DNA from: a virus | IMG/VR virus record: IMGVR_UViG_3300018059_000002 | Span: 1 to 54,094 of that record | Reading direction: 5' to 3' (one strand) | DNA length: 54,094 nt | Part shown: in pieces, positions 16,836-38,186 of the stretch | How positions within the stretch are numbered: the first letter of the stretch is position 1 | How the letters are laid out: each line of letters starts with the position of its first letter | Notes under the pieces: model-generated | Database searches by the model: none | Told to the model about the DNA's origin: nothing | What the model saw: the letters and a program-made list of their open reading frames with translations, nothing else | Program-made: the position numbers and the translations under genes

Positions 16836-19237
16836 AAAAGTTTTACGGTTTTATTGGTTGTTTGTTGTTTAGCGTTGCGGCATTCGGTGCAACGTTTAAT
16901 TTATTTTCACCGGCTAGTGGCGTACTCAAAGGCAATCCTGCGACATACGTAACAACATCTGCAACATCTACTGATGTTAAATCTCTATGGTCCGGCACGT
17001 GCGACAACACCACGTACTTACGCGGTGATGGTAGTTGTCAAACGCCGCCCGGTACCGGAGGGGGTACCGTTAACAGTGTGGCCCTTAGCGCGCCTTCGAT
17101 ATTCAGCGTGTCAGGTTCACCAGTTACGACAACAGGAACGCTCGGTCTAACGTTTGCAGGGGGCCAGACTGCAAACCAATTCCTTGCCACACCTGATGGT
17201 GTTGCGGGCGCAGTCGCGCTTAGGTCGATGGTGGCGGCAGATGTCCCAAGTTTAGATCTTGTTACCAAGACGACTACCACTCTCACAGGGCTATTGAAAG
17301 GCACGGGGAGCGGCGCTCCCAGCGCGTACACCGGTACCAGTTGTACAAATCAATTTCCTCGCAGCATTAATGTGAGCGGCGCAGCAACGTGCGCCAGCGT
17401 AGATGTAGCTCTTGACATCACAGGTATTACGCCGGCAACGAACGGCGGTACAGGAAGCGGGTTTACCGCATTTTCTGGCCCGGCCGCGTCGACCAAAACC
17501 TTTATCTTGCCTAATGCGTCAAGCACTATTCTCACCAGTAATGCGGCGGTCACTGTAGCGCAAGGCGGCACAGGTGTTGCTACGTTGACGGGCATTGCGA
17601 AAGGTAATGGCCCGTCGGCCTTTACGACCGCAGTCTCAGGCGATGTGACGACGTTGTGGGGCGGCACGTGCGACGGCACGACTTACTTGCGTGGTGATGG
17701 TAGTTGTCAAACGCCGCCTACGGGCGGATCGGGAGCTAACCCGAGCGCAACAATCGGGTTAACGGCAGTCAACGGTGCGGCCATCACGTTTATGCGTAGT
17801 GACGGCGCCCCGGCTTTGAGCCAGAGCATTACGCCAACGTGGACGGGCGTGCACGCGTGGACTAGATCCACCACAGGACAGACCCTAACAGGCACAAACT
17901 CAAACGCTGCTGCTAATACTTGGTCTGAGTGGGTAAGCACAAACAGCAGTGGGCACGGCCTACATTTAACACATACGTCGGCAGCGTCAAACGCATCCTT
18001 TATCCCCGGCGCACCGGCTTCAGAGGCGGGTCTGATATACACGGACGCTGCGGTGCCCATGGTGCTTGGTACTAGCAACACCAGCCGTGTGCAAATTGGT
18101 GCGGCAGGCAACGTCACTATCAATGCGCCGAGTAGCGGTGTGGCTTTAGCTATTCCATCTGTAGGTATGACAGTTAACGGCGCGACTATCGCAACGGCTG
18201 ATGGCATTGCTGGAAGGCTGCTGATTGGAGACGGGACCGCAACTAACACGGCGTTGCGAATTAACTCTGGGTCTGCAACTGTTCTCAGCATTGACGCCGT
18301 GTTAAGTAATAGTAGCGCCTCAGAAAAAATACTTGCTTTCCAGGACAATGGTGGGGCAACAACGTTCGGCGGAGTTATTACAGCCAAAGCCATTAATAAC
18401 GCGATACTGATGTCTGGTGCGACTACTAACAACCAATACTTACGTTCCACTACAACCGGTGCTGACAGCATCTTCGGCTCAGACAGCAGCTCAGGCGCGT
18501 CTATATTTAGCGGCTCCCCTGCTTATGCAACGATGCTCGGAACGACTGGGGCTACATCGGTAGTAATCGGCACTAACAGCGCGAAGCGTGTTGAGGTTAC
18601 CAGCGGTGGAGCAGTAACCATCGCAGCCGCCAGTGCAGCGAGATCGTTGCAGGTAAGCGGCGCGGCGAATCAGTACACACAATCGATAACGGCTAGCAGC
18701 ACCGCAAGTCAATCTTTTGGGTTATTAATTGATGCCGGTACGAATGCTTCCGACGTTGCGCTTAATGTGCGCAACCAAGCTGCCACGCTGCAAAACTTCA
18801 CGGTCACAGGTGTTGGCGCAATCGCCGTAAACAATGGTTCATATGGCACAGCCGGGCAAGTTCTGACTTCCGGAGGTTCGACTGCTGCCGCTACGTGGAC
18901 GAGCCCTGCCGCAACCACCATATCTGGTGGGTCTATTGCGTCTAACGGTAGCGGAAGCTGTTCTCTCACCACTAACGCTACCGTGGGGCTCGCCTCATGC
19001 TCGGTCAGCTCTACGGTTATGACTGTGACTTTCTCGAATACTGCCGCTCATTTTTGGGTGTGCTCGGCGTCAAACGAAAGTTCCAGTGCCGCGTATATCG
19101 TTAATACGGGCCGCGTTGGAACGACCACTGCAACTATACGCTCGTGGAATTTAACGTCGACAGGCCCTATCACGTGGAGCACGGTTGACCCTTCAACAAC
19201 AGCCATTACATACCAGATAACTTGTCAGCCTGTTTAA
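16832..19237 (+). CDS. Large tail fibre-like protein with hydrophobic N-terminus
   Basis: Start trimmed to the ATG at 16832 (ATGA overlap), giving 801 aa rich in Gly/Thr/Ala/Ser. GTAGQVLTSGGSTAAATW is a common fibre motif. The N-terminus MKKFYGFIGCLLFSVAAFGA looks like a signal peptide. Confidence 0.6.
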   Translation: MKKFYGFIGCLLFSVAAFGATFNLFSPASGVLKGNPATYVTTSATSTDVKSLWSGTCDNTTYLRGDGSCQTPPGTGGGTVNSVALSAPSIFSVSGSPVTTTGTLGLTFAGGQTANQFLATPDGVAGAVALRSMVAADVPSLDLVTKTTTTLTGLLKGTGSGAPSAYTGTSCTNQFPRSINVSGAATCASVDVALDITGITPATNGGTGSGFTAFSGPAASTKTFILPNASSTILTSNAAVTVAQGGTGVATLTGIAKGNGPSAFTTAVSGDVTTLWGGTCDGTTYLRGDGSCQTPPTGGSGANPSATIGLTAVNGAAITFMRSDGAPALSQSITPTWTGVHAWTRSTTGQTLTGTNSNAAANTWSEWVSTNSSGHGLHLTHTSAASNASFIPGAPASEAGLIYTDAAVPMVLGTSNTSRVQIGAAGNVTINAPSSGVALAIPSVGMTVNGATIATADGIAGRLLIGDGTATNTALRINSGSATVLSIDAVLSNSSASEKILAFQDNGGATTFGGVITAKAINNAILMSGATTNNQYLRSTTTGADSIFGSDSSSGASIFSGSPAYATMLGTTGATSVVIGTNSAKRVEVTSGGAVTIAAASAARSLQVSGAANQYTQSITASSTASQSFGLLIDAGTNASDVALNVRNQAATLQNFTVTGVGAIAVNNGSYGTAGQVLTSGGSTAAATWTSPAATTISGGSIASNGSGSCSLTTNATVGLASCSVSSTVMTVTFSNTAAHFWVCSASNESSSAAYIVNTGRVGTTTATIRSWNLTSTGPITWSTVDPSTTAITYQITCQPV
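17024..17049 (+). repeat. 26-nt direct repeat, copy 1 (ggtgatggtagttgtcaaacgccgcc)
   Basis: Identical 26-mer at 17693-17718, in frame. It encodes GDGSCQTPP within the repeated LW-x-GTCD-x-TTYLRGDGSCQTPP module. Confidence 0.9.
17693..17718 (+). repeat. 26-nt direct repeat, copy 2
   Basis: Identical to 17024-17049, 669 nt downstream, in the same reading frame. Confidence 0.9.
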
Positions 19238-22189: not shown

Positions 22190-22401
22190 GGCGCTGTTCG
22201 ATGCAGGCGCTTTAACCACCTATCGCTGTCGCTTGTCATCGTGGGTTGCAGTTGGCTCTGAGGTACGCTGCGTAGAAAAACGGCGGCGTCTGTCATAGCT
22301 CGTTTTAGTGGATCGCTATCAACGAGCAGCGACCATTGCTCAAGCTCGGTTGCGTGGCGGGTAGCTTCGAGTTTAAAACGGACGAAGTCGTCAGTATTCA
22401 T
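22186..22401 (-). CDS. Hypothetical protein
   Basis: 71-aa ORF whose ATG overlaps the helicase stop (TAATG). It is the last gene of the leftward arm. Confidence 0.5.
   Translation of the reverse strand: MNTDDFVRFKLEATRHATELEQWSLLVDSDPLKRAMTDAAVFLRSVPQSQLQPTMTSDSDRWLKRLHRTAP
22191..22213. terminator. Weak hairpin at the convergence point of the late and early arms
   Basis: gcgctg-ttcgatg-caggcgc (one bulged G) followed by ttt. It lies where the + arm (stop 22187-22189) meets the - arm (stop 22186-22188). Confidence 0.3.
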
Positions 22402-23867
22402 TATGCGGCCTCACGAGCGGTGATGCGCTCGTCCATCAAAAACAATGACGCCTTGGCGCGCGTTGCTGCAACGTAACATAAGTTGCGTTCTTGTTGTCGC
22501 TGCCAGTCTAATCTAACCCACGGGGCCGGACACTGCGACGCATTCAGCCAGAATACGCGGTCGCCCTCCAAGCCTTTTGCTTTGTGGATCGTGGCTAGGG
22601 TGACGGCCGCAGCGGTATCTGAAAATAAGGATTCGATTAAACAACATAGCGCCGGCACGGTTCTGCTGTTTTCATCAAGCGCATCAATCAACGCAAGGAT
22701 GCAATCGCGTTTGTCGACAATTGACTCTGCTTTAGAATCTTGTTTTTTAGCAATTGCTTTTTCGTGTTCGCGCGCACTCCATTGAAACAATTTTTCCGTT
22801 AGCCCGTCGATACCTTTCCCATTTAAACGTTTGATCATGGCGATAAGACCCGCGCCAATTTCACGACCCATAATAACCGCGGGTACGCGCAGTCTGATCA
22901 ACTGGTACACCAAAGTTACAAGCGGTTTAGTTGTGCGACACACGACAAGATCACCATTCGTGAACGTACTCGCATTCCATTTCTGGCCAATGTCTTTCAC
23001 TTCACCGGCAAGTGCGTTAGGCGCAGCTTCAATGTGGGAGACCCATTTACGTACGTAAGTAACCACACTTGTCGGGCAACGGTACGACACCGTCAGCGGT
23101 AACTCTACGCAACCGAACTCGTCAGCGATTAGCTGCATTGAATTTGAATCAGCCCCGCGAAAGCCGTAGATCGCTTGTGCTGGATCACCCACGGCTAACA
23201 ATCGGCTGTGCGGTTTCATAATCTTGCGAATGATCGCACGTTGTATGGCGTTAGTGTCTTGAGCTTCGTCTACAAAAACGTTATCGAATTTCGGTAAACT
23301 GATGCCTTCACGCACTGCTATGTAAAGCATATCGTCGAAATCGACAAGTGGCGATTCGTTCGACCATGTGAGCAGCTCGCTAGCTAACTCGGCTGCACGT
23401 TCGTTGTTGGCGAATTCGCTATCTAGCTCCAAGTCGTGGTGTTCGATTAGATCAAGCCACGCATTAGGTGTGTTCGCTAGTAAACAACCAATGCCGGCGT
23501 TACGGCCGAGGCCCACGAGGCGACAGATAAACGCCCCGTACATTTTTAAATCATTACCTTGCAAATTGTCTTCGCAAAGATTCCGCAGTTTGTTGCTGCA
23601 AACGTCGCGCTGTTCTTTGAATTTCATCACATCGCCAAATGACAATGAGTGAAACGTACGGCCGTTGACGCCGCGCCCCTTCATGGCTGCCGCAATCGAC
23701 TTGTTGAACGCTAAGACTACGTGCGAGCCCTTCGTACGCTTTACAGCTTCCTCTACCGTGGTGGACTTGCCGGAACCTGCAACGGCCTTGATAATGGCGT
23801 TACCGGTGCCGGATTCAACGAAATTGAAGATCGCTTGTTGGTAAGACGACCACGTGCGGGTGTTCAT
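22401..23867 (-). CDS. UvrD/PcrA-like superfamily 1 DNA helicase
   Basis: Walker A is AVAGSGKSTTV and Walker B is VFVDEAQDTN; other motifs are VSYRCP and TIHKAKGLEGDRVF. Start trimmed to ATG 23867 (GGAG 9 nt upstream), because the upstream 11 codons overlap promoter cassette E1. Confidence 0.85.
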   Translation of the reverse strand: MNTRTWSSYQQAIFNFVESGTGNAIIKAVAGSGKSTTVEEAVKRTKGSHVVLAFNKSIAAAMKGRGVNGRTFHSLSFGDVMKFKEQRDVCSNKLRNLCEDNLQGNDLKMYGAFICRLVGLGRNAGIGCLLANTPNAWLDLIEHHDLELDSEFANNERAAELASELLTWSNESPLVDFDDMLYIAVREGISLPKFDNVFVDEAQDTNAIQRAIIRKIMKPHSRLLAVGDPAQAIYGFRGADSNSMQLIADEFGCVELPLTVSYRCPTSVVTYVRKWVSHIEAAPNALAGEVKDIGQKWNASTFTNGDLVVCRTTKPLVTLVYQLIRLRVPAVIMGREIGAGLIAMIKRLNGKGIDGLTEKLFQWSAREHEKAIAKKQDSKAESIVDKRDCILALIDALDENSRTVPALCCLIESLFSDTAAAVTLATIHKAKGLEGDRVFWLNASQCPAPWVRLDWQRQQERNLCYVAATRAKASLFLMDERITAREAA

Positions 23868-23883
23868 GCGTGCGGCTCCGGTT

Positions 23884-23940
23884 CGTTCAGTGTGGAGCAA
23901 TCCTAACTGACGAGGTCGTCAGGCGTCAAGTGATGCGCGT
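23884..23940 (-). promoter_or_regulatory. Early promoter-operator cassette E1
   Basis: Minus strand: TTGACG (23929-23924), an 18-nt spacer holding the dyad CTGACGACCTCGTCAG (23922-23907), then TAGGAT (23905-23900), then the leader box CTCCACACTGAACG (23897-23884). Confidence 0.55.
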
Positions 23941-24136
23941 CTTGTTTCTCGAACATTATGCCTCCACACTCGCACGGTGCGGGCACACGCATAGGTGCAC
24001 CAAATTGGTAGACTTTACCGCAGCTCATACAGCGCCATCGGACGCTTTTCATCCCTTCGTTGGGTTTTAGAATGCGATCAGGCTCCCCAAATTCACGCAA
24101 TACATCGGCTCGCGTTTTAATCTTCCCACTTACCAT
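23903..24136 (-). CDS. Small Zn-ribbon protein
   Basis: Start trimmed to ATG 24136 (MVSGKIK...); the longer track ORF overlaps the polymerase out of frame. CMSCG...CECGG forms a four-Cys ribbon. The C-terminus PDDLVS is encoded by the E1 dyad. Confidence 0.5.
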   Translation of the reverse strand: MVSGKIKTRADVLREFGEPDRILKPNEGMKSVRWRCMSCGKVYQFGAPMRVPAPCECGGIMFEKQDAHHLTPDDLVS

Positions 24137-25979
24137 AGCGTTGCGCCTCCCATGCATCAGGTACCTTAATTGGCCACGGTTGGCCGTCTTCGCACACCGC
24201 CCACGCGGGCAGCGGGCGCACGCATTCCATGTAGCCGGCGATACTGCCGAACCCGTCAGGCACTTCTGCGACACCCTCGTCGTGAGTGTGCATCACGATC
24301 GGATAGCCTGCACGCTCTAAGCGCAACAAAGAATCGGCTTGTATTTGTCGGCACATGAACGATATGACGTTTTGAGTTTGCACCCCACCATATAAGCTCA
24401 TCCTCACCCAGCCTAGCGCGCCCTTCGTTTGGTTCGAGTTGTTACCCTCATAGGACATTTCGAATTCCCACGGGCTCGCGTAGTTGCGCTGCGAAGGCGT
24501 CAGACGCGGCGCGTGATAGCGAATGTATCCACCCGAAGGCGGCCGGCAATACAGTACATCGTCGTAGACTTGATACAGTACGCCAAGCCGCGATTGTGGG
24601 TTAGAGCTGAAGCATTGACCGGGTTCTAAGATAGCGGAGATGGCGGCTCCCTCCAATCCGTACAGTATTTGCTGTTCGTTGTGTCTGAACTTATTAAGGG
24701 TTTGGCCGCCCCAAAAATTTACGATGTTGGGAATAGCGTCGCGTGTCTTCAACACCACGGCTTTAATTGCATCGTCATCGCCTAGCAGATCGTCAGCGCC
24801 AAAACGTTTCCACCCATTAACCCACGCGCCGAAGTCTGCGGACAACACTGACAGTTTACCTAGTTGCCGGTCATCGTGGTGCTTGCCGTGCTGTTTTCTA
24901 AACGCTTGATACTCTTCGACTGACTTACCCGTCAGTAACGCGGCTTGCGCTTCGTAAATCTTCCCGTGGGTTCTAAACACGTCGATGCGCCATTGTTCAT
25001 TAGCCATGCAAGACGTTGCAACCGCTTGTATGGCGGTGAAGTCCGCAGACAGCAAACGGTGTCCCGCCTTGGCGATGATCATCGAACGCAGGCAGCTTGC
25101 AACCACTTCGAGGGCATCTAACGCGCCGTTGTTCTTTGGGTCGAGCGCCCACGCTGAACCCTCGCCGTATTCATATTCGAGCAGTTCAATAGATCGGCAA
25201 CGAATGATTGCGAGCGCGCGTTCAACTTGCTCGGGCTTTGAAAAAACACCCTTGTACAAGTTGGCCGGCTGCACGCCTCTACCATTCCACAGCGAAGTGT
25301 GTGCGCCGTAATAGGTGTATTGATCGTAAAGCCGCCCCGACGATGTCGTCTGCGATCTAAACGCGTAATACTTTTTACAGCTACCAAACGCGAGGATTTG
25401 CCGGATACGCAACACACGCAACACGTTGCGCGGGTAGTCGGTGCGCTTCAATGCGTCGGCAAGCGTGTCTTCGTCAAGTTCGTAAAGATAAACGCCCTGT
25501 GTGCGCATCCATTCGAGCATTTTTGCAACTTCGGTTGACTTCTGTACCGCGTGGTTTGTTATCTCGCGCAGCTCGCTGTTATAGCGCAACTCGGCTTGTT
25601 CAATGATAACGATGCAATCTTCGACCGCTGCCGTATCGACTTGCATGCCGCGCATGTTGATACGCAAGTCAAGCTTCCATACATCGTGCTCGCGGGGCGT
25701 TAGATCAGGCACACGGGCGCTAACGTGTGCCTCGGTTATGATGTCTTGCTTGTTGTATTCATAGAACCGCGCGAAGTCATCGGCGGCAGTAAGCGGCGTC
25801 CATCGCAACGACTGGTTTGCCTTCGTGGGTTTCTTCGGCATCGTCAGCTTGCGAATTAAATCGCTGCCGGCTTTATCCTTTTGCTGCGATACGTTCAACA
25901 CTGCGCCGAGTTCGCCGAGTGCGCCGGGGTACGCAGATGCGCGAGCCTTCGCGGCAGAACAGTGAGCTTGATCAGTCAT
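24117..25979 (-). CDS. Family A DNA polymerase, C-terminal fragment (ExoIII plus polymerase domain)
   Basis: ExoIII is YNKQD, motif A is SADFTAIQA, motif B is RQLGKLSVLSADFG and motif C is VMHTHDEG. ExoI and ExoII are absent here and are found in ORF 27288..27908. Confidence 0.85.
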   Translation of the reverse strand: MTDQAHCSAAKARASAYPGALGELGAVLNVSQQKDKAGSDLIRKLTMPKKPTKANQSLRWTPLTAADDFARFYEYNKQDIITEAHVSARVPDLTPREHDVWKLDLRINMRGMQVDTAAVEDCIVIIEQAELRYNSELREITNHAVQKSTEVAKMLEWMRTQGVYLYELDEDTLADALKRTDYPRNVLRVLRIRQILAFGSCKKYYAFRSQTTSSGRLYDQYTYYGAHTSLWNGRGVQPANLYKGVFSKPEQVERALAIIRCRSIELLEYEYGEGSAWALDPKNNGALDALEVVASCLRSMIIAKAGHRLLSADFTAIQAVATSCMANEQWRIDVFRTHGKIYEAQAALLTGKSVEEYQAFRKQHGKHHDDRQLGKLSVLSADFGAWVNGWKRFGADDLLGDDDAIKAVVLKTRDAIPNIVNFWGGQTLNKFRHNEQQILYGLEGAAISAILEPGQCFSSNPQSRLGVLYQVYDDVLYCRPPSGGYIRYHAPRLTPSQRNYASPWEFEMSYEGNNSNQTKGALGWVRMSLYGGVQTQNVISFMCRQIQADSLLRLERAGYPIVMHTHDEGVAEVPDGFGSIAGYMECVRPLPAWAVCEDGQPWPIKVPDAWEAQRYGKWED

Positions 25980-26170
25980 GTGTTGTCTGTTGCCTCAAGA
26001 GGTAAGCAGTGCACAACCCAGCGCAGCGCGTATTCGACAGTTCGCGGGATTGGTGATTCCCCTGCTATGTACTTACGCATTGTTCGCTCATTGATCCCTA
26101 TTTCCTTTGCCGAGCCGCGCTGTGACAGTCCAGCGCGGTCCAGTAGCTTCGCAAGCTGGACGGCGGTCAC
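25976..26170 (-). CDS. Small XRE-like helix-turn-helix protein
   Basis: 64 aa. GLSQRGSAKEIGINERTMRKYIAG is a typical HTH. Its stop overlaps the polymerase ATG (ATGA). Confidence 0.6.
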   Translation of the reverse strand: MTAVQLAKLLDRAGLSQRGSAKEIGINERTMRKYIAGESPIPRTVEYALRWVVHCLPLEATDNT

Positions 26171-26439
26171 CGCGGCACCGGTAAATCTGAAAATACTTTA
26201 TCTATCTGTGCCGACGCCGCCTCACGTTCAGCGATATTTGCAAATCCGTCCCCTGGTGAAAAGCTAGGCTCATACAAGCGCGCATCCATGACGGCTGCAT
26301 AGATTGCGCCATCGGCTGTAAAAGTAACTCCTTTCGTGAGCGGATAAACTTTGCCGCCGATGTTTTTGTATACCCGCCACACCCATGCGTGGTGGGAATT
26401 TTTCTCGCACTGCTTAATTTCTATGCAAAGACCCATCAC
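26167..26439 (-). CDS. Hypothetical protein
   Basis: 90-aa ORF that overlaps both neighbouring genes by 4 nt. Confidence 0.55.
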   Translation of the reverse strand: MMGLCIEIKQCEKNSHHAWVWRVYKNIGGKVYPLTKGVTFTADGAIYAAVMDARLYEPSFSPGDGFANIAEREAASAQIDKVFSDLPVPR

Positions 26440-26636
26440 AGCACCGCCTTACGCTTTTTGTCATAAATCACAGTATCGTCATCGTTCAGTATCTGCACGT
26501 AGTCTGCATCTGGATATTCGTCCATGTAATCCTTGACTGCTCGTTTTGCGACCTGCAAGCCATCAACATCTTCTGCATCGATGATGATGTTGCCGTCTGC
26601 ATCTAGCGCGATAATTCTGTAGTAACCCATCTTCAT
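26436..26636 (-). CDS. Hypothetical acidic protein
   Basis: 66-aa ORF with GGGAGA upstream of the ATG. It is the first gene downstream of the promoter at 26664-26693. Confidence 0.55.
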   Translation of the reverse strand: MKMGYYRIIALDADGNIIIDAEDVDGLQVAKRAVKDYMDEYPDADYVQILNDDDTVIYDKKRKAVL

Positions 26637-26663
26637 TCTCCCGTTTGCGTTGTCAATGGGTGT

Positions 26664-26693
26664 ATTAGACCATTAAACCCTATAGGGTGTCAA
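26664..26693 (-). promoter_or_regulatory. Sigma-70-like promoter with CCCTATAGGG palindrome in the spacer
   Basis: Minus strand: TTGACA (26693-26688), an 18-nt spacer, then TCTAAT (26669-26664). The spacer contains the perfect 10-bp palindrome CCCTATAGGG (26678-26687). Confidence 0.5.
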
Positions 26694-26709
26694 GCCCTAT
26701 ACAAGAAAT

Positions 26710-27012
26710 TTATTTAGGGGGCTCCGATCCTGTGGTCTGAGGTAAGCACCGGAGACCAATTTTAGTGGTGCCTCTAGTACCGCCAAGCGATAGACTTTTT
26801 GCAGAATAAAATTGATTTAGCTCACAATTGTGTAGCGCGACATATCCGCCGCCCTCTAATATTGCGCAAGGATACGGCACGCCATCATCGTCTTTGCCTT
26901 CCTCTGCGCAGCCGCTCACGCGATCCACCTCGTGTGATTCACCATAGGCAACCCAGAGAACCATGCCGTAGCTCAGCTCATTATTAAGCGTTTGAATTTC
27001 GTCGTCATTCAT
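26710..27012 (-). CDS. Hypothetical protein, EEGKDDDGVPYPCAI family (paralog of 28057..28446)
   Basis: Start trimmed to ATG 27012 (MNDDEIQTL...). It shares EEGKDDDGVPYPCAI...FYSAK and about 44 nt of near-identical DNA with the 28283-28326 region. Confidence 0.55.
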   Translation of the reverse strand: MNDDEIQTLNNELSYGMVLWVAYGESHEVDRVSGCAEEGKDDDGVPYPCAILEGGGYVALHNCELNQFYSAKSLSLGGTRGTTKIGLRCLPQTTGSEPPK

Positions 27013-27259
27013 TGTCACTACCTCTGTTCTGGAGCGGGGTTCCGGTGATGTGAATGCGCTCAACCATTGCTTGATGCGCACGTATCGAACCCTCGCTGGC
27101 CTCGTCTTGTGCAACGAACTTGCCGCGCTTCTTTGTTGCCTCGTCCCATTCCCAGACGTAGGTTTCTGCATAGCGCGCTTGCACCACCATTGCAGATAAA
27201 TCACGGTCAATTGTGCTGACGACAAAGCCACCAATGTAAGTCACTGCGAGCGAACTCAT
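27005..27259 (-). CDS. Hypothetical protein
   Basis: 84-aa ORF with GGAGG 8 nt upstream of the ATG at 27259. Confidence 0.5.
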   Translation of the reverse strand: MSSLAVTYIGGFVVSTIDRDLSAMVVQARYAETYVWEWDEATKKRGKFVAQDEASEGSIRAHQAMVERIHITGTPLQNRGSDNE

Positions 27260-27287
27260 TTCGTGCCACCTCCGGTTTGGTTAGGTT

Positions 27288-27908
27288 TCATAGAGGCGGC
27301 AGCCCTTGTTCATCGCAATGAAACGGAGGCCAGCCTAACACTGGTACACAATGAACATTCCATACGGTCCATTCAAAGTTAACGTTATGCGCTTCAAGCT
27401 TGCCTCCAGCTTCGACGTGTTCGAGTAGCGTTACCGGGTGCAGTAGGTTCGGGCACTCGCACGGGCACCCGAACCTTACAGGGCAATCGCACGCGTGGTT
27501 AACATCGTACCGTGGGTATTGTTTATAAGTTGTTGAGGGTTCCGGCCGCCACCATTGCACCCCGTTGCCGTCTTTAAGATTGTAAGCGAGCGACAATACC
27601 TCAAAGCTATGATGTTCTACGTAGTTACGCGTGCCCACCGCTTTAAGCCCGCGGTTTTGAGCTGACAGACCCGGCGGCGAATCCCATTTTTGTTCTAGCG
27701 GATTCCACACCAAACCCGCTTCGCTGTATGTTTCAAAATCGAAATCAGGTAACACAGTTGCAAGGCCGATGCCTGCAACAAATTGTGTACCGGCGCGTGC
27801 GTGTCGCCAGTCAACCATTATCGGGTGCCTTAGTAGGTAGCCGCTGTTGCCGCAATCGAAGTTCTTCAAATAGGGATTGCGGGCATTGGCAATATTCGAC
27901 AGCCGCAT
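27288..27908 (-). CDS. Family A DNA polymerase, N-terminal 3'-5' exonuclease fragment (ExoI plus ExoII)
   Basis: 206 aa. ExoI is LPDFDFETYSEAG and ExoII is LEAHNVNFEWTVWN. The ORF ends at a stop (27288) just where intact homologues continue toward ExoIII. Confidence 0.7.
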   Translation of the reverse strand: MRLSNIANARNPYLKNFDCGNSGYLLRHPIMVDWRHARAGTQFVAGIGLATVLPDFDFETYSEAGLVWNPLEQKWDSPPGLSAQNRGLKAVGTRNYVEHHSFEVLSLAYNLKDGNGVQWWRPEPSTTYKQYPRYDVNHACDCPVRFGCPCECPNLLHPVTLLEHVEAGGKLEAHNVNFEWTVWNVHCVPVLGWPPFHCDEQGLPPL

Positions 27909-27968
27909 AGGGGACCGGCGTAACCAATGTCTTTAATGGCAACCAGCATATTCCGCAGTGTGCCTCAC

Positions 27969-28172
27969 TCATAGTGCTGATCCTGATGCCTCAAGAGGTA
28001 GTCCATAGCGTTTACTAAGCTCCCTCGCCAATGCAATCCGTTCTCGGGTAACTCGCTCATGGTCCCTCTGCGTAAAGGATGCGGCTTGAGTGAACGGCCA
28101 TTCTTGATCGGAATACTTCAACTCGGCAATCAACATGCCGACCATAGCCTTTCGTATCTGCTGACGATTCAT
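27969..28172 (-). CDS. Hypothetical protein
   Basis: 67-aa ORF of balanced composition. Its C-terminal LPLEA, and 14 nt (tgcctcaagaggta), are shared with the end of ORF 25976..26170. Confidence 0.45.
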   Translation of the reverse strand: MNRQQIRKAMVGMLIAELKYSDQEWPFTQAASFTQRDHERVTRERIALARELSKRYGLPLEASGSAL

Positions 28173-28446
28173 GCCTCACGCATGACTTTTCTCGTGTGTG
28201 TGTGGTCCGAGATAGTCTCTTGGCTGAATAGAACATGCTCAGTTCGGCGGAATACAGCGCGGCATAGCGACCGTTTGCAAATATCGCGCAAGGGTACGGC
28301 ACACCATCATCGTCTTTGCCTTCTTCCGGATGACCACCAATCCCGACAACTTCGCGCGCCTCAATGCCGCTTATCCAAAAAACCACACCGCGCTTAACTG
28401 CCTGTCTCAACAAGTCGATTTGCTCATCATTCATTGCCGTGCTCAT
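28057..28446 (-). CDS. Hypothetical protein, EEGKDDDGVPYPCAI family (3' end uncertain)
   Basis: The N-terminal roughly 85 aa parallel ORF 26710..27012. The C-terminal roughly 40 aa overlap ORF 27969..28172 out of frame and look like read-through. Confidence 0.45.
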   Translation of the reverse strand: MSTAMNDEQIDLLRQAVKRGVVFWISGIEAREVVGIGGHPEEGKDDDGVPYPCAIFANGRYAALYSAELSMFYSAKRLSRTTHTREKSCVRHESSADTKGYGRHVDCRVEVFRSRMAVHSSRILYAEGP

Positions 28447-28496
28447 GTATAGGATTCAAAGACGCCAAGTCGATAAGTGACAGTAGGAGCAAGACT

Positions 28497-28730
28497 TTAC
28501 TCGTGTTGCGTTAGGCACCACAATGCTAGCAATTCGGCTGCATCCAACACAATGCGAATATCACGTTGTGGGATGCCCGTCGCGCTATTGATCAGTACTA
28601 AAATTGCTTGCCGACTCAACCCCGACGACTTCATGGCTTTAGCAGAAGTGGAAACTTTGCGAATCGAATCGGCCACGCGTTTGAAGTCTTCGCGTGTTGG
28701 CTCCGATAGTTTTTTGATTGCGGTTGCCAT
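28497..28730 (-). CDS. Hypothetical protein
   Basis: 77-aa ORF with GAGGTG upstream of the ATG at 28730. Confidence 0.5.
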   Translation of the reverse strand: MATAIKKLSEPTREDFKRVADSIRKVSTSAKAMKSSGLSRQAILVLINSATGIPQRDIRIVLDAAELLALWCLTQHE

Positions 28731-28750
28731 CTCTTCACCTCTTGCCCATT

Positions 28751-28804
28751 CCCCGCTGCTGTCCGGTCCGAATCGAACACGGGTATCACGGCTCAGCAGC
28801 GGGG
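28751..28804 (-). other. Long-range hairpin between the SSB gene and the next gene
   Basis: ccccgctgctg (28751-28761) pairs perfectly with cagcagcgggg (28794-28804), an 11-bp stem enclosing 32 nt. No U-run follows on either strand. Confidence 0.5.
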
Positions 28805-28814
28805 CGGGACTCAG

Positions 28815-29901
28815 TTAAAACGGTATGTCATCGTCAAATCGCGGGTCATATGGATACATCGGTTTAGTCGCCGGCAGCAAATGCGCCGGTAGCTTACCGC
28901 CTACAATCCCCTCAAAGTCGCACCATGTGACCGGCCGAAATCATGGCCGCGTCAATCCACCCTTTTTGCCGGAAGTCTTCGTAGCGCGCCCCCTGTGGGT
29001 TTGCCATGCGGTAACCGGCCGGTGCGCCTAAGGGATCGGGAGCCGGTGCCGCTGCCTGAGGAACTGCCGGAACCGGTGCGGGTGACGCCCCTGCCACAGG
29101 TGGCGCTAAGAAGCCGGCGTGCGGTGTCACGGGCACAGGGGCAGCGCCGGGGGCCATCGTGCCGGCGGTCGGAGTAGGCGACGGCTGCGTATAACCGCCT
29201 CCAGGCACGCTAGGCGACGGCGTAGCGCTAGGGGCCACCGTAGAAGACGGGAACGCGGCAGAGCCTACGGGGGCGGCTGTTACGCCGGCAGGCAGCGCCG
29301 ATCGACCGAACCCCACGGCGCGAGGGTCGGGGCCACTCACGATTTCCTTACCCGGCGCACGGAAAGCAACCATGTTGTGGTTGAGGTAAACGCCCGGTTT
29401 CTGCGTTTGGCCGTTGCCTTGCACAGTGCCGAACACTTCCACCCAAAAACCGGGTTTAACTAGGCCCGGTTGCAGCATCGGGTTGCCCTGTTCATCGAAC
29501 ACCTTAACGGGGAACGATGAACTAAATTTGAGAATCCAGCAACCGAGGTGCCCTTCGCGATCACAATTTTTGCGGCCGTTCTGATTCGGGATTTGACTAT
29601 CGCCGTCCTCGATCTTCCACGCGAAATTAGGGCTTGCGGTTTGACCTTGCGGCCATGCGGCATTTGCAATCGCGAGAATCGTTTGACCCCACGGCTCCAC
29701 CCACCACTGCGCTGCGGTTTTTTGAATCGCTAGCGCGAAGTAATAGCGGACGGTTGGCTTGCCAGCGTTCGGGCCTTCACGGGTGACCAGTGGTTTGCCT
29801 TGGGCGTCTTTATCTTGCGGTTCGTACAAATCGCCCTGAACGATACGGCCGACTGGAAATAGAATCGAATTTTGATTTTGCTGTGTAGCGGGTGCGTTCA
29901 T
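28815..29901 (-). CDS. SSB isoform carrying a DDDIPF tail, if a +1 shift occurs at CTT_TGA (28917-28912)
   Basis: The +1 frame is open from 28940 to the TAA at 28817-28815. It encodes EGIVGGKLPAHLLPATKPMYPYDPRFDDDIPF, and DDDIPF is the canonical bacterial SSB C-terminal tip. Confidence 0.45.
28912..29901 (-). CDS. Single-stranded DNA-binding protein (DUF2815-like), 0-frame product
   Basis: 329 aa. The N-terminal domain (FPVGRIVQGDLYEPQ...YYFALAI...FWVEVFG) resembles DUF2815 phage SSBs. It has a Pro/Ala-rich linker and ends at CTT TGA. Confidence 0.7.
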   Translation of the reverse strand: MNAPATQQNQNSILFPVGRIVQGDLYEPQDKDAQGKPLVTREGPNAGKPTVRYYFALAIQKTAAQWWVEPWGQTILAIANAAWPQGQTASPNFAWKIEDGDSQIPNQNGRKNCDREGHLGCWILKFSSSFPVKVFDEQGNPMLQPGLVKPGFWVEVFGTVQGNGQTQKPGVYLNHNMVAFRAPGKEIVSGPDPRAVGFGRSALPAGVTAAPVGSAAFPSSTVAPSATPSPSVPGGGYTQPSPTPTAGTMAPGAAPVPVTPHAGFLAPPVAGASPAPVPAVPQAAAPAPDPLGAPAGYRMANPQGARYEDFRQKGWIDAAMISAGHMVRL

Positions 29902-31100
29902 TTTGAAAATACCTTGCGTGCAGTGATGGAATTATCGCGCGTCAGCTTCAACGCGGCGGCGGGTCTATGAGCGTAGTGTTTCATCGTTTCCGCGTCAACG
30001 CCGAATTGTATCGCTTGCGTGGGTGTTACAAGTGAATCCTTTTTAGTTTGTGGCTTCCGTAAATCGATGCCGATAAGATCGCCCAAACCGACGACCTCGT
30101 CAACATTAACATCGTCGTAGTATGTTAACCGGGATTGACCGGGGGTCATGTGGAAAAATGAGATGGGTTTACCTTGTCGCATTAGCGCCTCAGCTTGTGC
30201 TGCTAGGCCCGTCTCACGTGCTTCAAGGCGTTTAATGATGTTTTGTACCATCGCTAACTCGGTGCCGATTGCTTCGGGTGGCATCTCTACGATTTCGCCG
30301 GTTGTAGCGAAATCAATAAAAACGCCGGTCGCGTATTGTAACGTTTTACAGACGTGGCGCGCCCTGCAATCAACGCATGAATCATTGGTTGTTGCAACTG
30401 GATCGGAGCCAAGCGCCGCATGCGCAGCATTTGATGCGATGTTCAAATAGTTACGCAGCACATATGCCTGAACGCGCCACCACCTAACAGGGCCGTCGGC
30501 TCGATAGCATCGCGGTTGCACGATACACATCTCTACCCACAAATTAAGGTCTGCGTCATCCAGGTTTAACCGATCCATTACACCTGATGTGTATGAGGTT
30601 GTCTGATAGTTGCCGAACACTTCCACGTAGCGGTGTCCGTATTTGTATTCACCCACACGCAACAGTTTGATTAGGCCGCGCGCAAATAGATCGGGCGATA
30701 TTTCAGGCGGGCAGACTTTATGCGCGAAGCGCGCATCGGGAAAAAATCGCCATGCATCCGGTGTTCCGGCGCAGTGTTCGGGATGTACACGCTTGATAGA
30801 TACGGCGTCCTCAAGGCGCAATGACGAATGGAAACCGCCTATTGCTTCGGCGTACATCGTTGCGCCTGCTACCATATCAACATCCACGGTCCACTGGCGG
30901 CCCCGATACTCCATCTTAAATCCGACAGGCAACGTATGGCCGTACCCGCGAGCGTAATTCAACGCGACCATGTGCGCGAATGTTCCCTCGGCTTCTTCTT
31001 CGGTCTCAGGTAACGGCGGCACTTGTTCTTGCAATTGCACGGAAGCGGGACACTTCACAGTAAGATCAAGAGATGACGGGGCAATACGCGCGTGGCTCAT
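29898..31100 (-). CDS. PD-(D/E)XK / Cas4-like exonuclease (DUF2800-like)
   Basis: Start trimmed to ATG 31100, just after the upstream TAA. The C-terminal half has a Cys cluster (CVDCRARHVC). It sits at the usual DUF2800 position next to DUF2815 and PolA. Confidence 0.6.
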   Translation of the reverse strand: MSHARIAPSSLDLTVKCPASVQLQEQVPPLPETEEEAEGTFAHMVALNYARGYGHTLPVGFKMEYRGRQWTVDVDMVAGATMYAEAIGGFHSSLRLEDAVSIKRVHPEHCAGTPDAWRFFPDARFAHKVCPPEISPDLFARGLIKLLRVGEYKYGHRYVEVFGNYQTTSYTSGVMDRLNLDDADLNLWVEMCIVQPRCYRADGPVRWWRVQAYVLRNYLNIASNAAHAALGSDPVATTNDSCVDCRARHVCKTLQYATGVFIDFATTGEIVEMPPEAIGTELAMVQNIIKRLEARETGLAAQAEALMRQGKPISFFHMTPGQSRLTYYDDVNVDEVVGLGDLIGIDLRKPQTKKDSLVTPTQAIQFGVDAETMKHYAHRPAAALKLTRDNSITARKVFSK

Positions 31101-32733: not shown

Positions 32734-34446
32734 ATGCTCTACGATTTTCAGCAAGGCGTACAAAACGCTAGCTTTCAAGCATACCAGGAGGGGGCCACAG
32801 TTGTAATGCCGGTGATGCCCACGGGTGGTGGTAAGACAGTTTTATTTTGCGATACGATGATGCGTTTCGATTGTCCGTCCGTGGTAATTGCACATCGTCA
32901 AGAGTTAGTAAGTCAAGCGGCGTTAGCGCTCAACCGCGAACGGGTACCGCATTCTATCATCGCACCTAAAAAAATCGTACAGCAAATCATTGCTTTAGAA
33001 CATGACATACATGGATATTCAACATACGCATCAAATGCGCCGGCGCGTGTGGCCGGCGTAGATACGTTACGCAATCACGATGCTAATGATAAGTGGTTGT
33101 CGCGCGTCGGCTTCGGGGTAATCGACGAAGGCCATCACGTATTACGCGATAACAAATGGGGTAGAGAGGTTGGTAAATTTCCTAACGCACGTTGGTACCT
33201 CCCTACGGCACACGCAGTACGTGCCGACAACAAAGGGTTAGGACGTGAAGGCGGCGACGGATTTGTCGACAGGTTGATTTTAGGTCCATACGGTCGGCAA
33301 TTGATTGACCGCGGTTTTCTTACCGACTATCGCCTAGTATGTGTGGGTAGCGACATTGCGCTCGCTGATGTGCCTATAGGACCGTCAGGCGAATACAACA
33401 TGCCGAAGTTGCGTGCGGCAACTCACGCTGATAATAAAATTGTTGGCGATGTGGTTAAGACGTATTTAGAGTACGCCGCCGGCAAACTCGGTGTTACGTT
33501 CGCAGTTGACAAAGAGGAAGCGGTAAAGCTGCGTAACGCTTACGTTGCAGCGGGCGTGCCGGCAGAAGTCATCACAGATGAAACGCCTATTAATGTACGC
33601 AGCCAATTGATGCGCAAATTTAAAGCGCGTCAGATTTTGCAACTTGTATCTGTTGATTGTCTCGGCGAAGGCGTAGACGTTCCTGCGATCGAAGTCGTTA
33701 GCCTTGTGCGTCGTACGGCTTCGTGGCAATTGATGTGCCAGCAAGTAGGCCGCGCGCTGCGGGTGATGGTTGACGATCAGTATGCGTTGAACTGGCCTTA
33801 CTATAGCGACCTAGAGCGTCTTGCGATCATTGCCAACTCAAACAAGCCGAAGGCAATCATTATCGACCACGTGGGTAATATCGTGTGGCACGCAAAGCTT
33901 CGCGGCTTGTTTGACTCGCGACAAGAGTACGGTTTGTTAACGGGTGAATGCCGCAGAGGCAAAAGCGATGCGATACCATTACGCGTCTGCCTGGAATGCA
34001 AACAGCCTTACGAAGCCTATTTAATCCGATGCAAGCACTGCGGTAATGAACCAATGCCGGCAGGACGATCTACGCCTGAACTTGTGCAAGGCGACCTTAT
34101 CGAACTCGATCCTGAAGTATTGCGCGCATTACGTGGGGGTTCTGAAAAGATTATGCGCCCTTATGTTACGCCGTACGGAATGCCTACTCATATTGTGAAA
34201 ACTCAATTGCGACACCATCACGACCGATTCAGAGGCCAAACTTCGTTGCGCCACGTACTCATGTTGTGGGGTGGGTGGCAAAAGCATCTAGGTTTAAACG
34301 AACGTGAATCACAAAAGTTGTTTTATATTCGATTCGGTATTGATGTGTTAAGCGCGCAGGCGCTGGCACTGACGGACGCGACAGCGTTAGAAGCTCGCAT
34401 CGTCGCAGAACTTGAACGGGCTAACATCCAAGAGGTAGCCGCATGA
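32734..34446 (+). CDS. Superfamily 2 DEAD/DEAH-box helicase
   Basis: Motif I is MPTGGGKTV, motif II is VIDEGHHV, and motifs V-VI are VDCLGEGVDVP...QQVGRALR. There is a C-terminal Zn ribbon (CLECK...CKHCG). Confidence 0.85.
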   Translation: MLYDFQQGVQNASFQAYQEGATVVMPVMPTGGGKTVLFCDTMMRFDCPSVVIAHRQELVSQAALALNRERVPHSIIAPKKIVQQIIALEHDIHGYSTYASNAPARVAGVDTLRNHDANDKWLSRVGFGVIDEGHHVLRDNKWGREVGKFPNARWYLPTAHAVRADNKGLGREGGDGFVDRLILGPYGRQLIDRGFLTDYRLVCVGSDIALADVPIGPSGEYNMPKLRAATHADNKIVGDVVKTYLEYAAGKLGVTFAVDKEEAVKLRNAYVAAGVPAEVITDETPINVRSQLMRKFKARQILQLVSVDCLGEGVDVPAIEVVSLVRRTASWQLMCQQVGRALRVMVDDQYALNWPYYSDLERLAIIANSNKPKAIIIDHVGNIVWHAKLRGLFDSRQEYGLLTGECRRGKSDAIPLRVCLECKQPYEAYLIRCKHCGNEPMPAGRSTPELVQGDLIELDPEVLRALRGGSEKIMRPYVTPYGMPTHIVKTQLRHHHDRFRGQTSLRHVLMLWGGWQKHLGLNERESQKLFYIRFGIDVLSAQALALTDATALEARIVAELERANIQEVAA

Positions 34447-35687: not shown

Positions 35688-38186
35688 ATGGCGGACTCTA
35701 GCGACATTCGCGGAGCGTTGTCAAACGTTCCCGCGTTCATCCTCTACCGACTGGTGCCTACAGTTGATGCCAAGGGCTACCCCAAGCTCGACAAAGTGCC
35801 CACAAGTCCGAACGGCGGCTACGATATTAACCCGCACGATTCGGCTGAATGGATGTTACCGGCGGACGCTCAGTTATGGGCTGACGTATTTAATGCGCAA
35901 CTGTTACCGCAAGGCGTCAGCGGATACGGTACCGGCGTCATCATCTCCGAAGACATCGTCTTGCCGAACGGCCGGCGCTTGTTCGCACTCGATATTGACA
36001 AATGCCGCGACGGCAACCAATGGGCACCGCATGCGCGCGCCTTCGTGGATAAGTTGTCGGGTGGCGGTGTCGAAGTCAGTGTAAGCGGTAATGGGTTACA
36101 CGTGTACGGCACATATGCCGGCGAGCGGCCGGACCACGGCACGCGTAATAAAACCTACGGCCTTGAGTTATACACACGGTTGCGTTTCATCGCTTGCACA
36201 GGCTTAGGCGCTGCCGGTGATCCTCTCAAAGACTTGACGCGCGAACTGCACGCGCTAGTCGAATATTTCCCCGCCCACGATGTCGAAGATTACGACGGCG
36301 AGTTGACGACCAAACCTGTTGTGGAGTGGTCCGGTCCTGACGATGACGACGAGCTACTGCGCAGAGCAATGAGGTCTCACAGCGGTGCAAGCGTCTTTGG
36401 TGGCAAGGCTGCCTTCGCCGATTTATGGAATGCTAACGTCGCTGTACTTGCTCGCGTGTTTCCGCCGCAACAACACGGACAATATGACGCTAGCGCCGCC
36501 GATCAAGCTTTGTGTAATCATTTAGCATTCTGGACCGGCAACCACGGCGAACGCATGTTGCGCCTGTTGTATCGATCGGCACTCGTGCGTAACAAGTGGG
36601 AGCGGCCTGGATATCTCCTCGGAACCGTACAGCGCGCTTGCGGTTCGCAGAAACAATGGTATAAAGATTCCCGGAGCAACGTGTCTCCGGGTCAGATGGC
36701 TTACGTTGCAGCCGCATGTCTGACCCTCGGCACCTCCGATGCGGTGACGCCGGCAACGCCTAGTGCGACCGTCGCACCCTCGGAGGGCGTCGTTCCTCAA
36801 TCCACGCCGTACGATCCTAGTAAGCCGATTCCGCCGGGCACGCGTCCGCCTATCGGCGATTATCTTACCGAAGCGCAACAGGTTGCTTTATTTGATGGCT
36901 GCGTCTATGTGCAAGATATCCATCAAGCCATAATGCCTCAAGGGCACACACTCAGCTCAGAGAAATTCGACGCAGAGTTCAGCGGGTACACATTCGCAGT
37001 GAAACCTGATGGGCAACAGCCTGCTAAACGCGCATGGGAAGCGTTTGTGTTTTCAGAAATCCACGCTTTCCCGAAAGTCAAAGGCATGTACTTCGATCCG
37101 CGCCAACCATCGCGCAAGATCATAGAGCGCGAGGGATCAACGCTAATCAATTCGTACGTCCCATCGGTTATCATTCGTAAATCAGGTGATGTATCGCCGT
37201 TCCTAACACACCTGTACAAACTCTTACCGCTTGGAAATGACGCACAAATTCTGCTGGCTTATTTCGCTGCCTGCGTTCAACACGCCGGCGATAAATTCCA
37301 ATGGTGGCCGTTGATCCAGGGTGTAGAAGGCAATGGCAAAACTACGCTAAGTCACTTATTGCAGTACGCCGTTGGGCGTCGGTACACCCATTGGCCTAAA
37401 GCCGCCGAGCTAGGCTCAAAGTTTAATAGCGCATTCTACGGTAAGCTGCTGATATGTTGTGAAGACGTTTATATTTCCGAATCGCGCGGCTCATTGTGGG
37501 AAGCCTTAAAACCCATGATCACCGGCATAGAGTTGGAAATCGAAGGCAAGGGCGTAGACAAGGTTACCCGAGAGGTTTGCTTTAACGGCGTGATGAACTC
37601 AAATCACAAAAACGCCATTCGCAAAACGGCTAACGATCGACGAGTAGGGCCGTTCTTCTGTGCTCAACAATCAAAAGCCGATCTGATGCGCGACGGGTTG
37701 ACCAAAGATTATTTTATTGCGCTGAAAGCGTGGCGCGAAGGTGAAGGCCGCGAGATTGTCGCCGATTATTTGATGCGCTACGAAATCCCGGACGAACTGA
37801 ACCCAGCACGTCGTTGCATCGTTTGCCCTGACACCACGGCCACACGGGAAGCGATTAGCGCCGGCCTTGGTGCAGCCGAGCAGGAAGTGATTGAGGCTAT
37901 TTCACAGGGTACAGCAGGCTTCCGCGGCGGTTGGGTGTCATCAAGCGCCCTGGACCGTCTGCTCGCCAACATCGGCAAAGGGTCCAGCATACCCCGCAAC
38001 AAGCGCCGGGAGATGTTAGACACCCTCGGCTATACGCCACATCCGGGCTTACCAGACGGCCGCGCTACGGTCAACGACACCGACGGCACCCGACCCTACC
38101 TGTATGTGCTTCAGACAACACCCGGAGCCTCTGAGCGTAACCCACACGCAATTATGAGCCTGTATCAAGCGGCACAGAAAGGTTAG
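35688..38186 (+). CDS. Primase-polymerase / SF3 helicase fusion (P4 alpha / D5-like)
   Basis: 832 aa. The N-terminus LFALDIDKCRDG...VSVSGNGLHVYG is prim-pol-like. The C-terminus has Walker A (GVEGNGKTTL) and Walker B (LLICCEDV). Confidence 0.8.
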   Translation: MADSSDIRGALSNVPAFILYRLVPTVDAKGYPKLDKVPTSPNGGYDINPHDSAEWMLPADAQLWADVFNAQLLPQGVSGYGTGVIISEDIVLPNGRRLFALDIDKCRDGNQWAPHARAFVDKLSGGGVEVSVSGNGLHVYGTYAGERPDHGTRNKTYGLELYTRLRFIACTGLGAAGDPLKDLTRELHALVEYFPAHDVEDYDGELTTKPVVEWSGPDDDDELLRRAMRSHSGASVFGGKAAFADLWNANVAVLARVFPPQQHGQYDASAADQALCNHLAFWTGNHGERMLRLLYRSALVRNKWERPGYLLGTVQRACGSQKQWYKDSRSNVSPGQMAYVAAACLTLGTSDAVTPATPSATVAPSEGVVPQSTPYDPSKPIPPGTRPPIGDYLTEAQQVALFDGCVYVQDIHQAIMPQGHTLSSEKFDAEFSGYTFAVKPDGQQPAKRAWEAFVFSEIHAFPKVKGMYFDPRQPSRKIIEREGSTLINSYVPSVIIRKSGDVSPFLTHLYKLLPLGNDAQILLAYFAACVQHAGDKFQWWPLIQGVEGNGKTTLSHLLQYAVGRRYTHWPKAAELGSKFNSAFYGKLLICCEDVYISESRGSLWEALKPMITGIELEIEGKGVDKVTREVCFNGVMNSNHKNAIRKTANDRRVGPFFCAQQSKADLMRDGLTKDYFIALKAWREGEGREIVADYLMRYEIPDELNPARRCIVCPDTTATREAISAGLGAAEQEVIEAISQGTAGFRGGWVSSSALDRLLANIGKGSSIPRNKRREMLDTLGYTPHPGLPDGRATVNDTDGTRPYLYVLQTTPGASERNPHAIMSLYQAAQKG

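Follow-up and report, generated by a model that had tools for sequence, protein, structure and literature searches.

The gene for an SSB, a protein that binds single-stranded DNA (ssDNA), on the minus strand of IMG/VR virus record IMGVR_UViG_3300018059_000002, of which the whole stretch of 54,094 nucleotides was analysed (the window), probably ends in a programmed +1 ribosomal frameshift that would add an acidic tail to an SSB of the T7 type (gp2.5/Enc34-like). The probability of this interpretation is put at about 0.8. The sequence-only reading of the window had proposed that a CUU UGA site, similar to that of prfB, the gene of release factor 2 (RF2), fuses the SSB to a tail with the terminal residues DDDIPF. 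Comparison with relatives supports the proposal, because the site is conserved, the tail is conserved in a frame-specific manner, and the CTT and GTG codons of the site are invariant.

Proposed recoding site and its conservation among relatives

The last codons of the SSB open reading frame (ORF) are CAC ATG GTG CGA CTT TGA. The end of the ORF, the positions of CTT and TGA, the +1 frame open from 28940 to 28815, the GGTG located three nucleotides (nt) upstream of CTT, and the DDDIPF tip, like that of Escherichia coli SSB, were all confirmed in the sequence (Table 1), as was the absence of any homopolymer longer than 3 nt from the 26-nt interval for the frame change (28940-28912), in which the longest run is T3. 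The Shine-Dalgarno (SD)-like complementarity to 16S rRNA consists of four bases (GGUG), or five (GGUGA) where the spacer codon begins with A, and overlaps the conserved Met-Val codons. GAGG and GGAG are enriched upstream of the genes of the window (8 and 6 observed versus 1.3 and 0.8 expected), which indicates that the host ribosome uses SD pairing. No stimulatory structure is indicated by the RNA fold of 28800-28950, which is no better than those of shuffled sequences (z = +1.1), and an Rfam scan of 25800-29000 found nothing relevant. The window contains no tRNA genes, and so no phage-encoded suppressor or shifty tRNA. A second match to GGTG-N3-CTTTAG (18137-18149 on the plus strand) is not at the end of an ORF and was dismissed.

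The hypothetical fused product of 361 amino acids (aa) was searched against 5.8 billion proteins, and the 120 best clusters were inspected. In no match does coverage of the query exceed 91%, equivalent to residue 329 exactly, and 58 of the 120 clusters terminate in [HL]MV[RKH]L, at identities down to approximately 45%. Among the best 150 matches of a HMMER search of 1.84 billion cluster representatives, no alignment extends beyond residue 332. Both searches therefore indicate that the zero-frame stop is conserved in the clade with this ending, and no in-frame fusion of SSB and tail is present among their 270 best matches.

The DNA set for the clade comprises 24 distinct sequences including the window, 39-80% identical at the aa level and derived from independent metagenomes (IMG/VR, JGI, ENA metagenomes, Logan assemblies, and NCBI metagenome-assembled genomes (MAGs)); in the scan of genome contigs for relatives, only MAG contigs figured (n = 5). 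All 24 conform to CAY ATG GTG NNN CTT stop, the stop being TGA in 12, TAA in nine and TAG in three, and 23 of them have a +1 extension of 8-41 aa with a D/E-rich end in IPF or IPY followed by a stop. The tails are otherwise highly divergent and many are unalignable (e.g., EWVDGIPF, KEFDSDEDIPF, SHKQIVHLGPYDGPIDDDIPF and NVSGFYLPRASTLYALGECQICREQAMLFNGVCSTCDDIPF). The genes of the clade thus retain the CTT-stop junction in every case (24 of 24) instead of being simply fused. As controls, approximately 100 distinct SSB loci of other clades have no such tail in any frame, and the 11 distinct IMG/VR loci outside SSB genes that fit the site pattern by chance lack one as well. Across these sequences, the arrangement of CTT-stop with a +1 IPF tail recurs far more often than chance would allow. 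Among the TGA members, the stop is followed by G in seven, A in three and C in two; in the TAA and TAG members it is mostly followed by C.

The +1 tails of two clade members (L169 and L171) carry CxxC-x(n)-CxxC inserts (CQYCGVSKENGECPKC and CQICREQAMLFNGVCSTC), which suggests a small zinc-binding knuckle between the SSB and the IPF tip.

It is extremely improbable that the contig contains an indel from sequencing or assembly and that the true gene is one plain ORF for SSB and tail. A single base change within 28912-28940 would join the frames, and indels or errors do occur at this site, where L172 differs from L176 by a 1-nt insertion; however, the other 23 distinct sequences, from independent samples and assemblers, agree in both the stop and the +1 offset, no in-frame fusion was found among the 58 clade protein clusters or the 150 representatives, and no homopolymer exceeds 3 nt. 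The earlier judgement that a simple indel is less likely is thereby strengthened to an effective exclusion, the same arrangement being shared by independent assemblies that are only 39-80% identical.

Selection on the site and on its tail

At the recoding site, CTT is used in 24 of 24 sequences versus 12% of leucine codons elsewhere in the same genes, and GTG in 24 of 24 versus 37% of valine codons. The hexamer ATGGTG is invariant in all 22 aligned sequences and also in L200 and L216; the neighbouring Gly and His codons are free to vary at their third positions in relatives, and the spacer is filled by at least eight different Arg, Lys or His codons. Where the spacer starts with A, the +1 frame has a TGA of its own (atGGTGAag) with its end 5 nt upstream of the zero-frame stop, and therefore the frame change is confined to the CTT codon in 16 of the 22 sequences.

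This confinement bears on the idea that the tail is produced by another route: transcriptional slippage, a -2 shift, or separate initiation or reinitiation that would yield a free acidic peptide. A +1 and a -2 shift are indistinguishable from sequence alone, and the tail of the window has an internal ATG at codon 19. However, the longest run of T3 is far too short for polymerase slippage, and ten of the 22 tails contain no ATG, GTG or TTG, so that independent initiation is excluded; the positions of such codons in the remaining tails are not conserved. Moreover, CUU_U and the CCC_U and GUU_U of related SSB genes (described below) all permit the P-site tRNA to re-pair one base downstream. The other routes are accordingly quite improbable.

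Differences between the tails of closely related sequences fall mostly on the third positions of +1 codons: at positions 1, 2 and 3 they number 4, 0 and 9 for the window and L165, 0, 0 and 6 for L001 and L048, and 0, 1 and 4 for L005 and L006, with sums of 4, 1 and 19. Such a bias is the signature of purifying selection on a putative +1-frame translation. It is not expected of a decaying relic, in which an ancestral in-frame tip would have been cut off and only the tail-less SSB would now be made, nor are the gain of CxxC inserts and the invariance of CTT and GTG; and a relic would not stay open with a D/E-IPF end through divergence so saturating that tails of 8-41 aa cannot be aligned. Despite the presence of the tip in frame in some distant relatives (P0327, P0250 and P0208), and the ability of most of the family to function without it, a relic is very improbable.

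A real frameshift that is constitutive and almost complete, with the stop merely tolerated and only the tailed protein of any importance, is also unlikely. Slow termination can indeed make sites of the prfB type highly efficient (PMC12421855), but deletion of 1 nt would yield the tailed product free of cost, yet no clade member has such a deletion, and the stop has been switched among TGA, TAA and TAG without loss. Because the stop is kept through these switches even though a one-base deletion would fuse the frames, the comparison argues that termination at the site may itself be selected, in which case both products or their ratio would matter.

Several observations weigh against programmed frameshifting of the prfB type. 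The base after the stop in the window is G, in contrast to the weak-termination C of prfB, and the SD-like GGUG(A) is far weaker than the AGGGGG of prfB. His-Met-Val (HMV) lies within a predicted beta-strand of a folded mini-domain in the AlphaFold2 model, and its invariance may be due in part to constraint at the protein level. In the wider family, most SSBs, among them those of cultured phages of Shewanella, Vibrio and Acinetobacter, have no acidic tip, and therefore the tip is not universally needed. Within the clade, L172 (Logan SRR28886884) is the sole member with its IPY-ending tail in the +2/-1 frame: it has CTT TAG A ATG GGT where its close relative L176 has CTT TGA ATG GGT, a difference of one extra A that may reflect an error of assembly, a recent mutation, or a genuine variant or different shift.

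Proposed mechanism and comparison with known systems

As inferred from the arrangement of the site, frameshifting would begin when a ribosome arrives with CUU in the P site and the stop codon (UGA in the window) in the A site. During a pause there, the GGUG located 3 nt upstream of CUU would pair with the anti-SD end of 16S rRNA, the spacer codon CGA would be in the E site at the moment of the shift, and the P-site tRNA-Leu would slip from CUU to UUU. Decoding would restart in the +1 frame at GAG and add 32 residues, ending in DDDIPF, to give a product of 361 aa, the tip of which may bind partner proteins; ribosomes that terminate instead would release a tail-less SSB of 329 aa, and hence two isoforms would be made in some ratio. 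The suggested dependence of this ratio on RF2 is plausible for TGA members such as the window, but as a general property it did not stand: the signal is not specific to RF2, as the clade uses TGA, TAA and TAG.

In the frameshift signal of prfB, the CTTT and in-frame stop are preceded, across a 3-nt spacer, by an SD-like element (PMC12421855), and all of the CUU-stop +1 entries in RECODE are prfB (PMC10885494). The SSB gene likewise has CUU in the P site directly before an in-frame stop, and a CUUU slippery run; its GGUG, exactly 3 nt upstream of CUU, is a candidate counterpart of the SD-like element, and no downstream RNA structure was detected at its site, just as none is needed in prfB. The SSB gene differs in that it does not encode a release factor and so would not form an autoregulatory loop, in that its clade uses TGA, TAA or TAG whereas more than 99% of prfB stops are TGA, and in that the shift would add a short C-terminal tip, whereas the prfB shift opens the body of the protein.

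In SSBs of the T7 type, the acidic tail at the C-terminus is normally in frame, and in T7 and Enc34 it directly follows the OB domain (PMC5686142). The SSB of the window resembles T7 gp2.5 and Enc34 ORF6 in its OB-fold core and in its replication-module context (DUF2800 nuclease, Pol A, helicase and primase). It also has an acidic, aromatic-ended C-terminus, although only in the predicted +1 product (...RFDDDIPF); the zero-frame product ends in ...GHMVRL without an acidic tip. A further difference is that a long Pro/Ala linker and a small C-terminal domain intervene in the SSB of the window, where the acidic tip needs a +1 shift.

The acidic, Phe-terminated tip of T7 gp2.5 and of bacterial SSB recruits polymerase, helicase and other partners, and the same type of tip competes with ssDNA for the binding cleft in both proteins. 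The C-terminal tip of bacterial SSB (...DFDDDIPF in E. coli) docks onto many replication and repair proteins. Its consensus is identical to the last six residues of the extension in the window, DDDIPF, although the protein of the window is not a homotetrameric SSB of the bacterial type. Another replisome gene, dnaX, has two products (tau and gamma) that differ in a C-terminal partner-binding region, and its shift is -1, at A AAA AAG upstream of a hairpin, the shifted product being the shorter one; the SSB gene is similar to dnaX as a replication gene with two predicted products that differ in a C-terminal part for partner binding. In Listeria phage PSA, capsid and tail genes have a +1 shift where a proline codon adjoins a stop. 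A sister clade of SSB genes has a proline codon beside its stop in the same way (CCC-TAA), but the PSA genes are structural and not replicative.

The SSB gene, its surroundings and its wider family

The window is a tailed-phage genome of approximately 54 kb and the gene at 28912..29901 (-) is its replication SSB, as concluded from its neighbours, which encode a DUF2800 nuclease, a DUF1643 protein, a family-A DNA polymerase (24117-25979 and 27288-27908), helicases (22401-23900 and 32734-34446) and a primase (35688-38186), and from the capsid, portal and terminase genes present in other parts of the window. Among PHROGs, the SSB matches phrog_7011, 'Gp2.5-like ssDNA binding protein' (E 7e-64, residues 8-327). 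Nothing significant was found in a Pfam search, the score for PF10991 (Enc34_ssDNA-bd, formerly DUF2815) being 14.5 bits versus a cut-off of 26 (E 0.029); a precomputed PF10991 match exists for some homologues, and a sequence search of the Protein Data Bank gave a weak DUF2815 match only (4jg2, E 0.005). An AlphaFold2 model based on an alignment of 19 homologues was matched by Foldseek to the Enc34 SSB (5odl, E 1e-6, TM(target) 0.64) and also to two DUF2815 structures and T7 gp2.5 (entries 4klk, 4jg2 and 1je5 (E 7e-5)). By predicted fold and by PHROG family, the protein is of the T7 gp2.5/Enc34 type, and the label 'DUF2815-like' given to it by the sequence-only reading is borne out on these grounds even though PF10991 itself is below threshold.

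The predicted domains of the protein and the features of the recoding site are listed in Table 1. The C-terminal domain is predicted to fold as strand-helix-helix-strand, with HMV as the last strand, and is kept across the family. Matches to cultured phage SSBs by tblastn cover only residues 7-213 (the OB domain), and neither the C-terminal domain nor the frameshift tail is present in any of the cultured phage SSBs so matched. At the nucleotide level, 28600-30000 has no match among the same 50,697 phage records.

Table 1. Features of the SSB gene and its proposed recoding site in the window (pLDDT, predicted local distance difference test).
Feature	Position	Strand	Basis or remark
Zero-frame SSB ORF, 329 aa, end ...AGHMVRL-TGA	28912..29901	-	ORF list, phrog_7011, AlphaFold2 model
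OB-fold ssDNA-binding domain (putative), residues ~5-200	29302..29889	-	AlphaFold2 pLDDT ~80, Foldseek
Disordered Pro/Ala-rich low-complexity linker, residues ~205-284	29050..29289	-	pLDDT <50
Small folded C-terminal domain, residues ~290-329, PLGAPAGYRMAN...GW.DA....GHMVRL	28915..29034	-	pLDDT 82-89
+1-frame TGA, upstream limit of the shift interval in this gene	28941..28943	-	+1 frame open from 28940
Invariant ATGGTG	28921..28926	-	alignment of relatives
Putative SD-like GGTG, complement of CACC at the 16S 3' end	28924-28921	-	ends exactly 3 nt before CTT
3-nt spacer codon CGA (Arg)	28918..28920	-	length conserved, sequence variable
Slippery CTT_T (CTT 28917-28915)	28914..28917	-	CTT in 24/24 clade sequences
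Zero-frame stop TGA, next base G	28912..28914	-	sequence
+1-frame extension EGIVGGKLPAHLLPATKPMYPYDPRFDDDIPF + TAA	28815..28913	-	reading from GAG 28913-28911
DDDIPF tip, directly before TAA	28818..28835	-	identical to consensus of bacterial SSB C-terminal tip
+1-frame terminal TAA	28817-28815	-	sequence

Downstream of the tail, at 28751-28804 (-), the window has a perfect inverted repeat, CCCCGCTGCTG ... CAGCAGCGGGG, with a 32-nt loop. Similar perfect repeats of 10-13 bp, which start approximately 10-20 nt past the tail stop and enclose loops of 18-63 nt, are found in nearly all clade members (L001, L004, L005, L006, L165, L169, L170, L176, L200 and others) with stems that differ in sequence (covariation), and are followed by GGGGAATGGGC.AGAGG and then the next gene. 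Termination, processing and regulation by a hairpin are possible roles for this element; its variable distance from the shift site makes stimulation of frameshifting an unlikely one. In SSB genes of the ..NGLMLA type (L007-L038 and others), a conserved string that encodes 'AWPFGAG' or 'PGPSGPG' is located just past the stop. The 'AWPFGAG' peptide was rejected as a tail because the string is in different frames at different loci; the string is accordingly a nucleotide-level element, probably a terminator hairpin rich in GC (GCCTGGCCCTTCGGGGCCGG-like).

In the window, the gene of the family-A DNA polymerase is split (24117-27908 (-)). Residues 1-136 of the contiguous polymerases of relatives match 27767..27321, and residues 137 onward match 25979..25062; the approximately 1.34 kb inserted between them (25980-27320) contains an ORF of 174 aa (26710..27234) with no PHROG or Pfam match, and no intron was found in the insert by Rfam. 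The insert is absent from IMGVR_UViG_3300005844_000028 (L002/L197), a syntenic but distinct phage with approximately 68% nucleotide identity and 55% SSB protein identity to the window. Possible explanations for the split polymerase are a mobile insertion, an unrecognised intron, and a genuine two-subunit polymerase.

Outside the clade, other slippery codons are found at the ends of SSB genes. In a sister clade with SSBs that end in ...GMMVGP (L072/L179 and L193), the site is ATG GTG GGT CCC TAA and the +1 tail, seen in two sequences (L072 and L193, the SSB proteins of which are 47% identical), is the Cys-rich NGR.CCAGHLGYGSDDWP.CD.DCIP[FW]. A single sequence, L180, has GCG GGG GGT GTT TAG and a +1 tail that ends in DDDIPF. 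At each of the CUU, CCC and GUU sites, a G-rich element lies upstream with the same spacing of 3 nt. In a few distant relatives the tip is in frame: P0327 (...HGMLLDDEIPF), P0250 (...AAIPDDIPF) and P0208. The site described by the sequence-only reading therefore stands, but its scope was too narrow in being limited to one gene, as sister clades use CCC-TAA and GTT-TAG. It is tentatively suggested, at a little short of even odds, that stop-coupled, SD-assisted +1 frameshifting is recurrent in this SSB family, having emerged or been reshaped at no fewer than three slippery codons (CUU, CCC and GUU) and with all three stops, and that it would fix the proportions of SSB with and without the tip. 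These proportions would tune replisome coupling and partner recruitment and, as termination and slippage compete, would respond to the release-factor and translation status of the host during infection. On the same tentative footing, the site would be without known precedent as a CUU-stop signal outside prfB and as a recoding event in any SSB gene. No published report of recoding in an SSB gene was found in the open-access literature, including the Atkins 2016 review, Antonov 2013 and PRFect, an absence that is not proof. The site is rated as a known type of recoding signal in a new gene family.

A CUU-stop +1 signal that RECODE holds for prfB only (PMC10885494) would thus operate in an unrelated phage replication gene. 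The clade constitutes a natural allelic series in which competition between RF1 and RF2, the SD-like element and the P-site codon can each be related to +1 efficiency. The two predicted isoforms would differ only in an acidic tip that recruits partners and inhibits the protein itself, which may be a simple way of setting the stoichiometry of tails on ssDNA. All 58 protein clusters of the clade have been truncated at the zero-frame stop by gene callers, so that the functional C-terminus of these SSBs would be missing from the databases.

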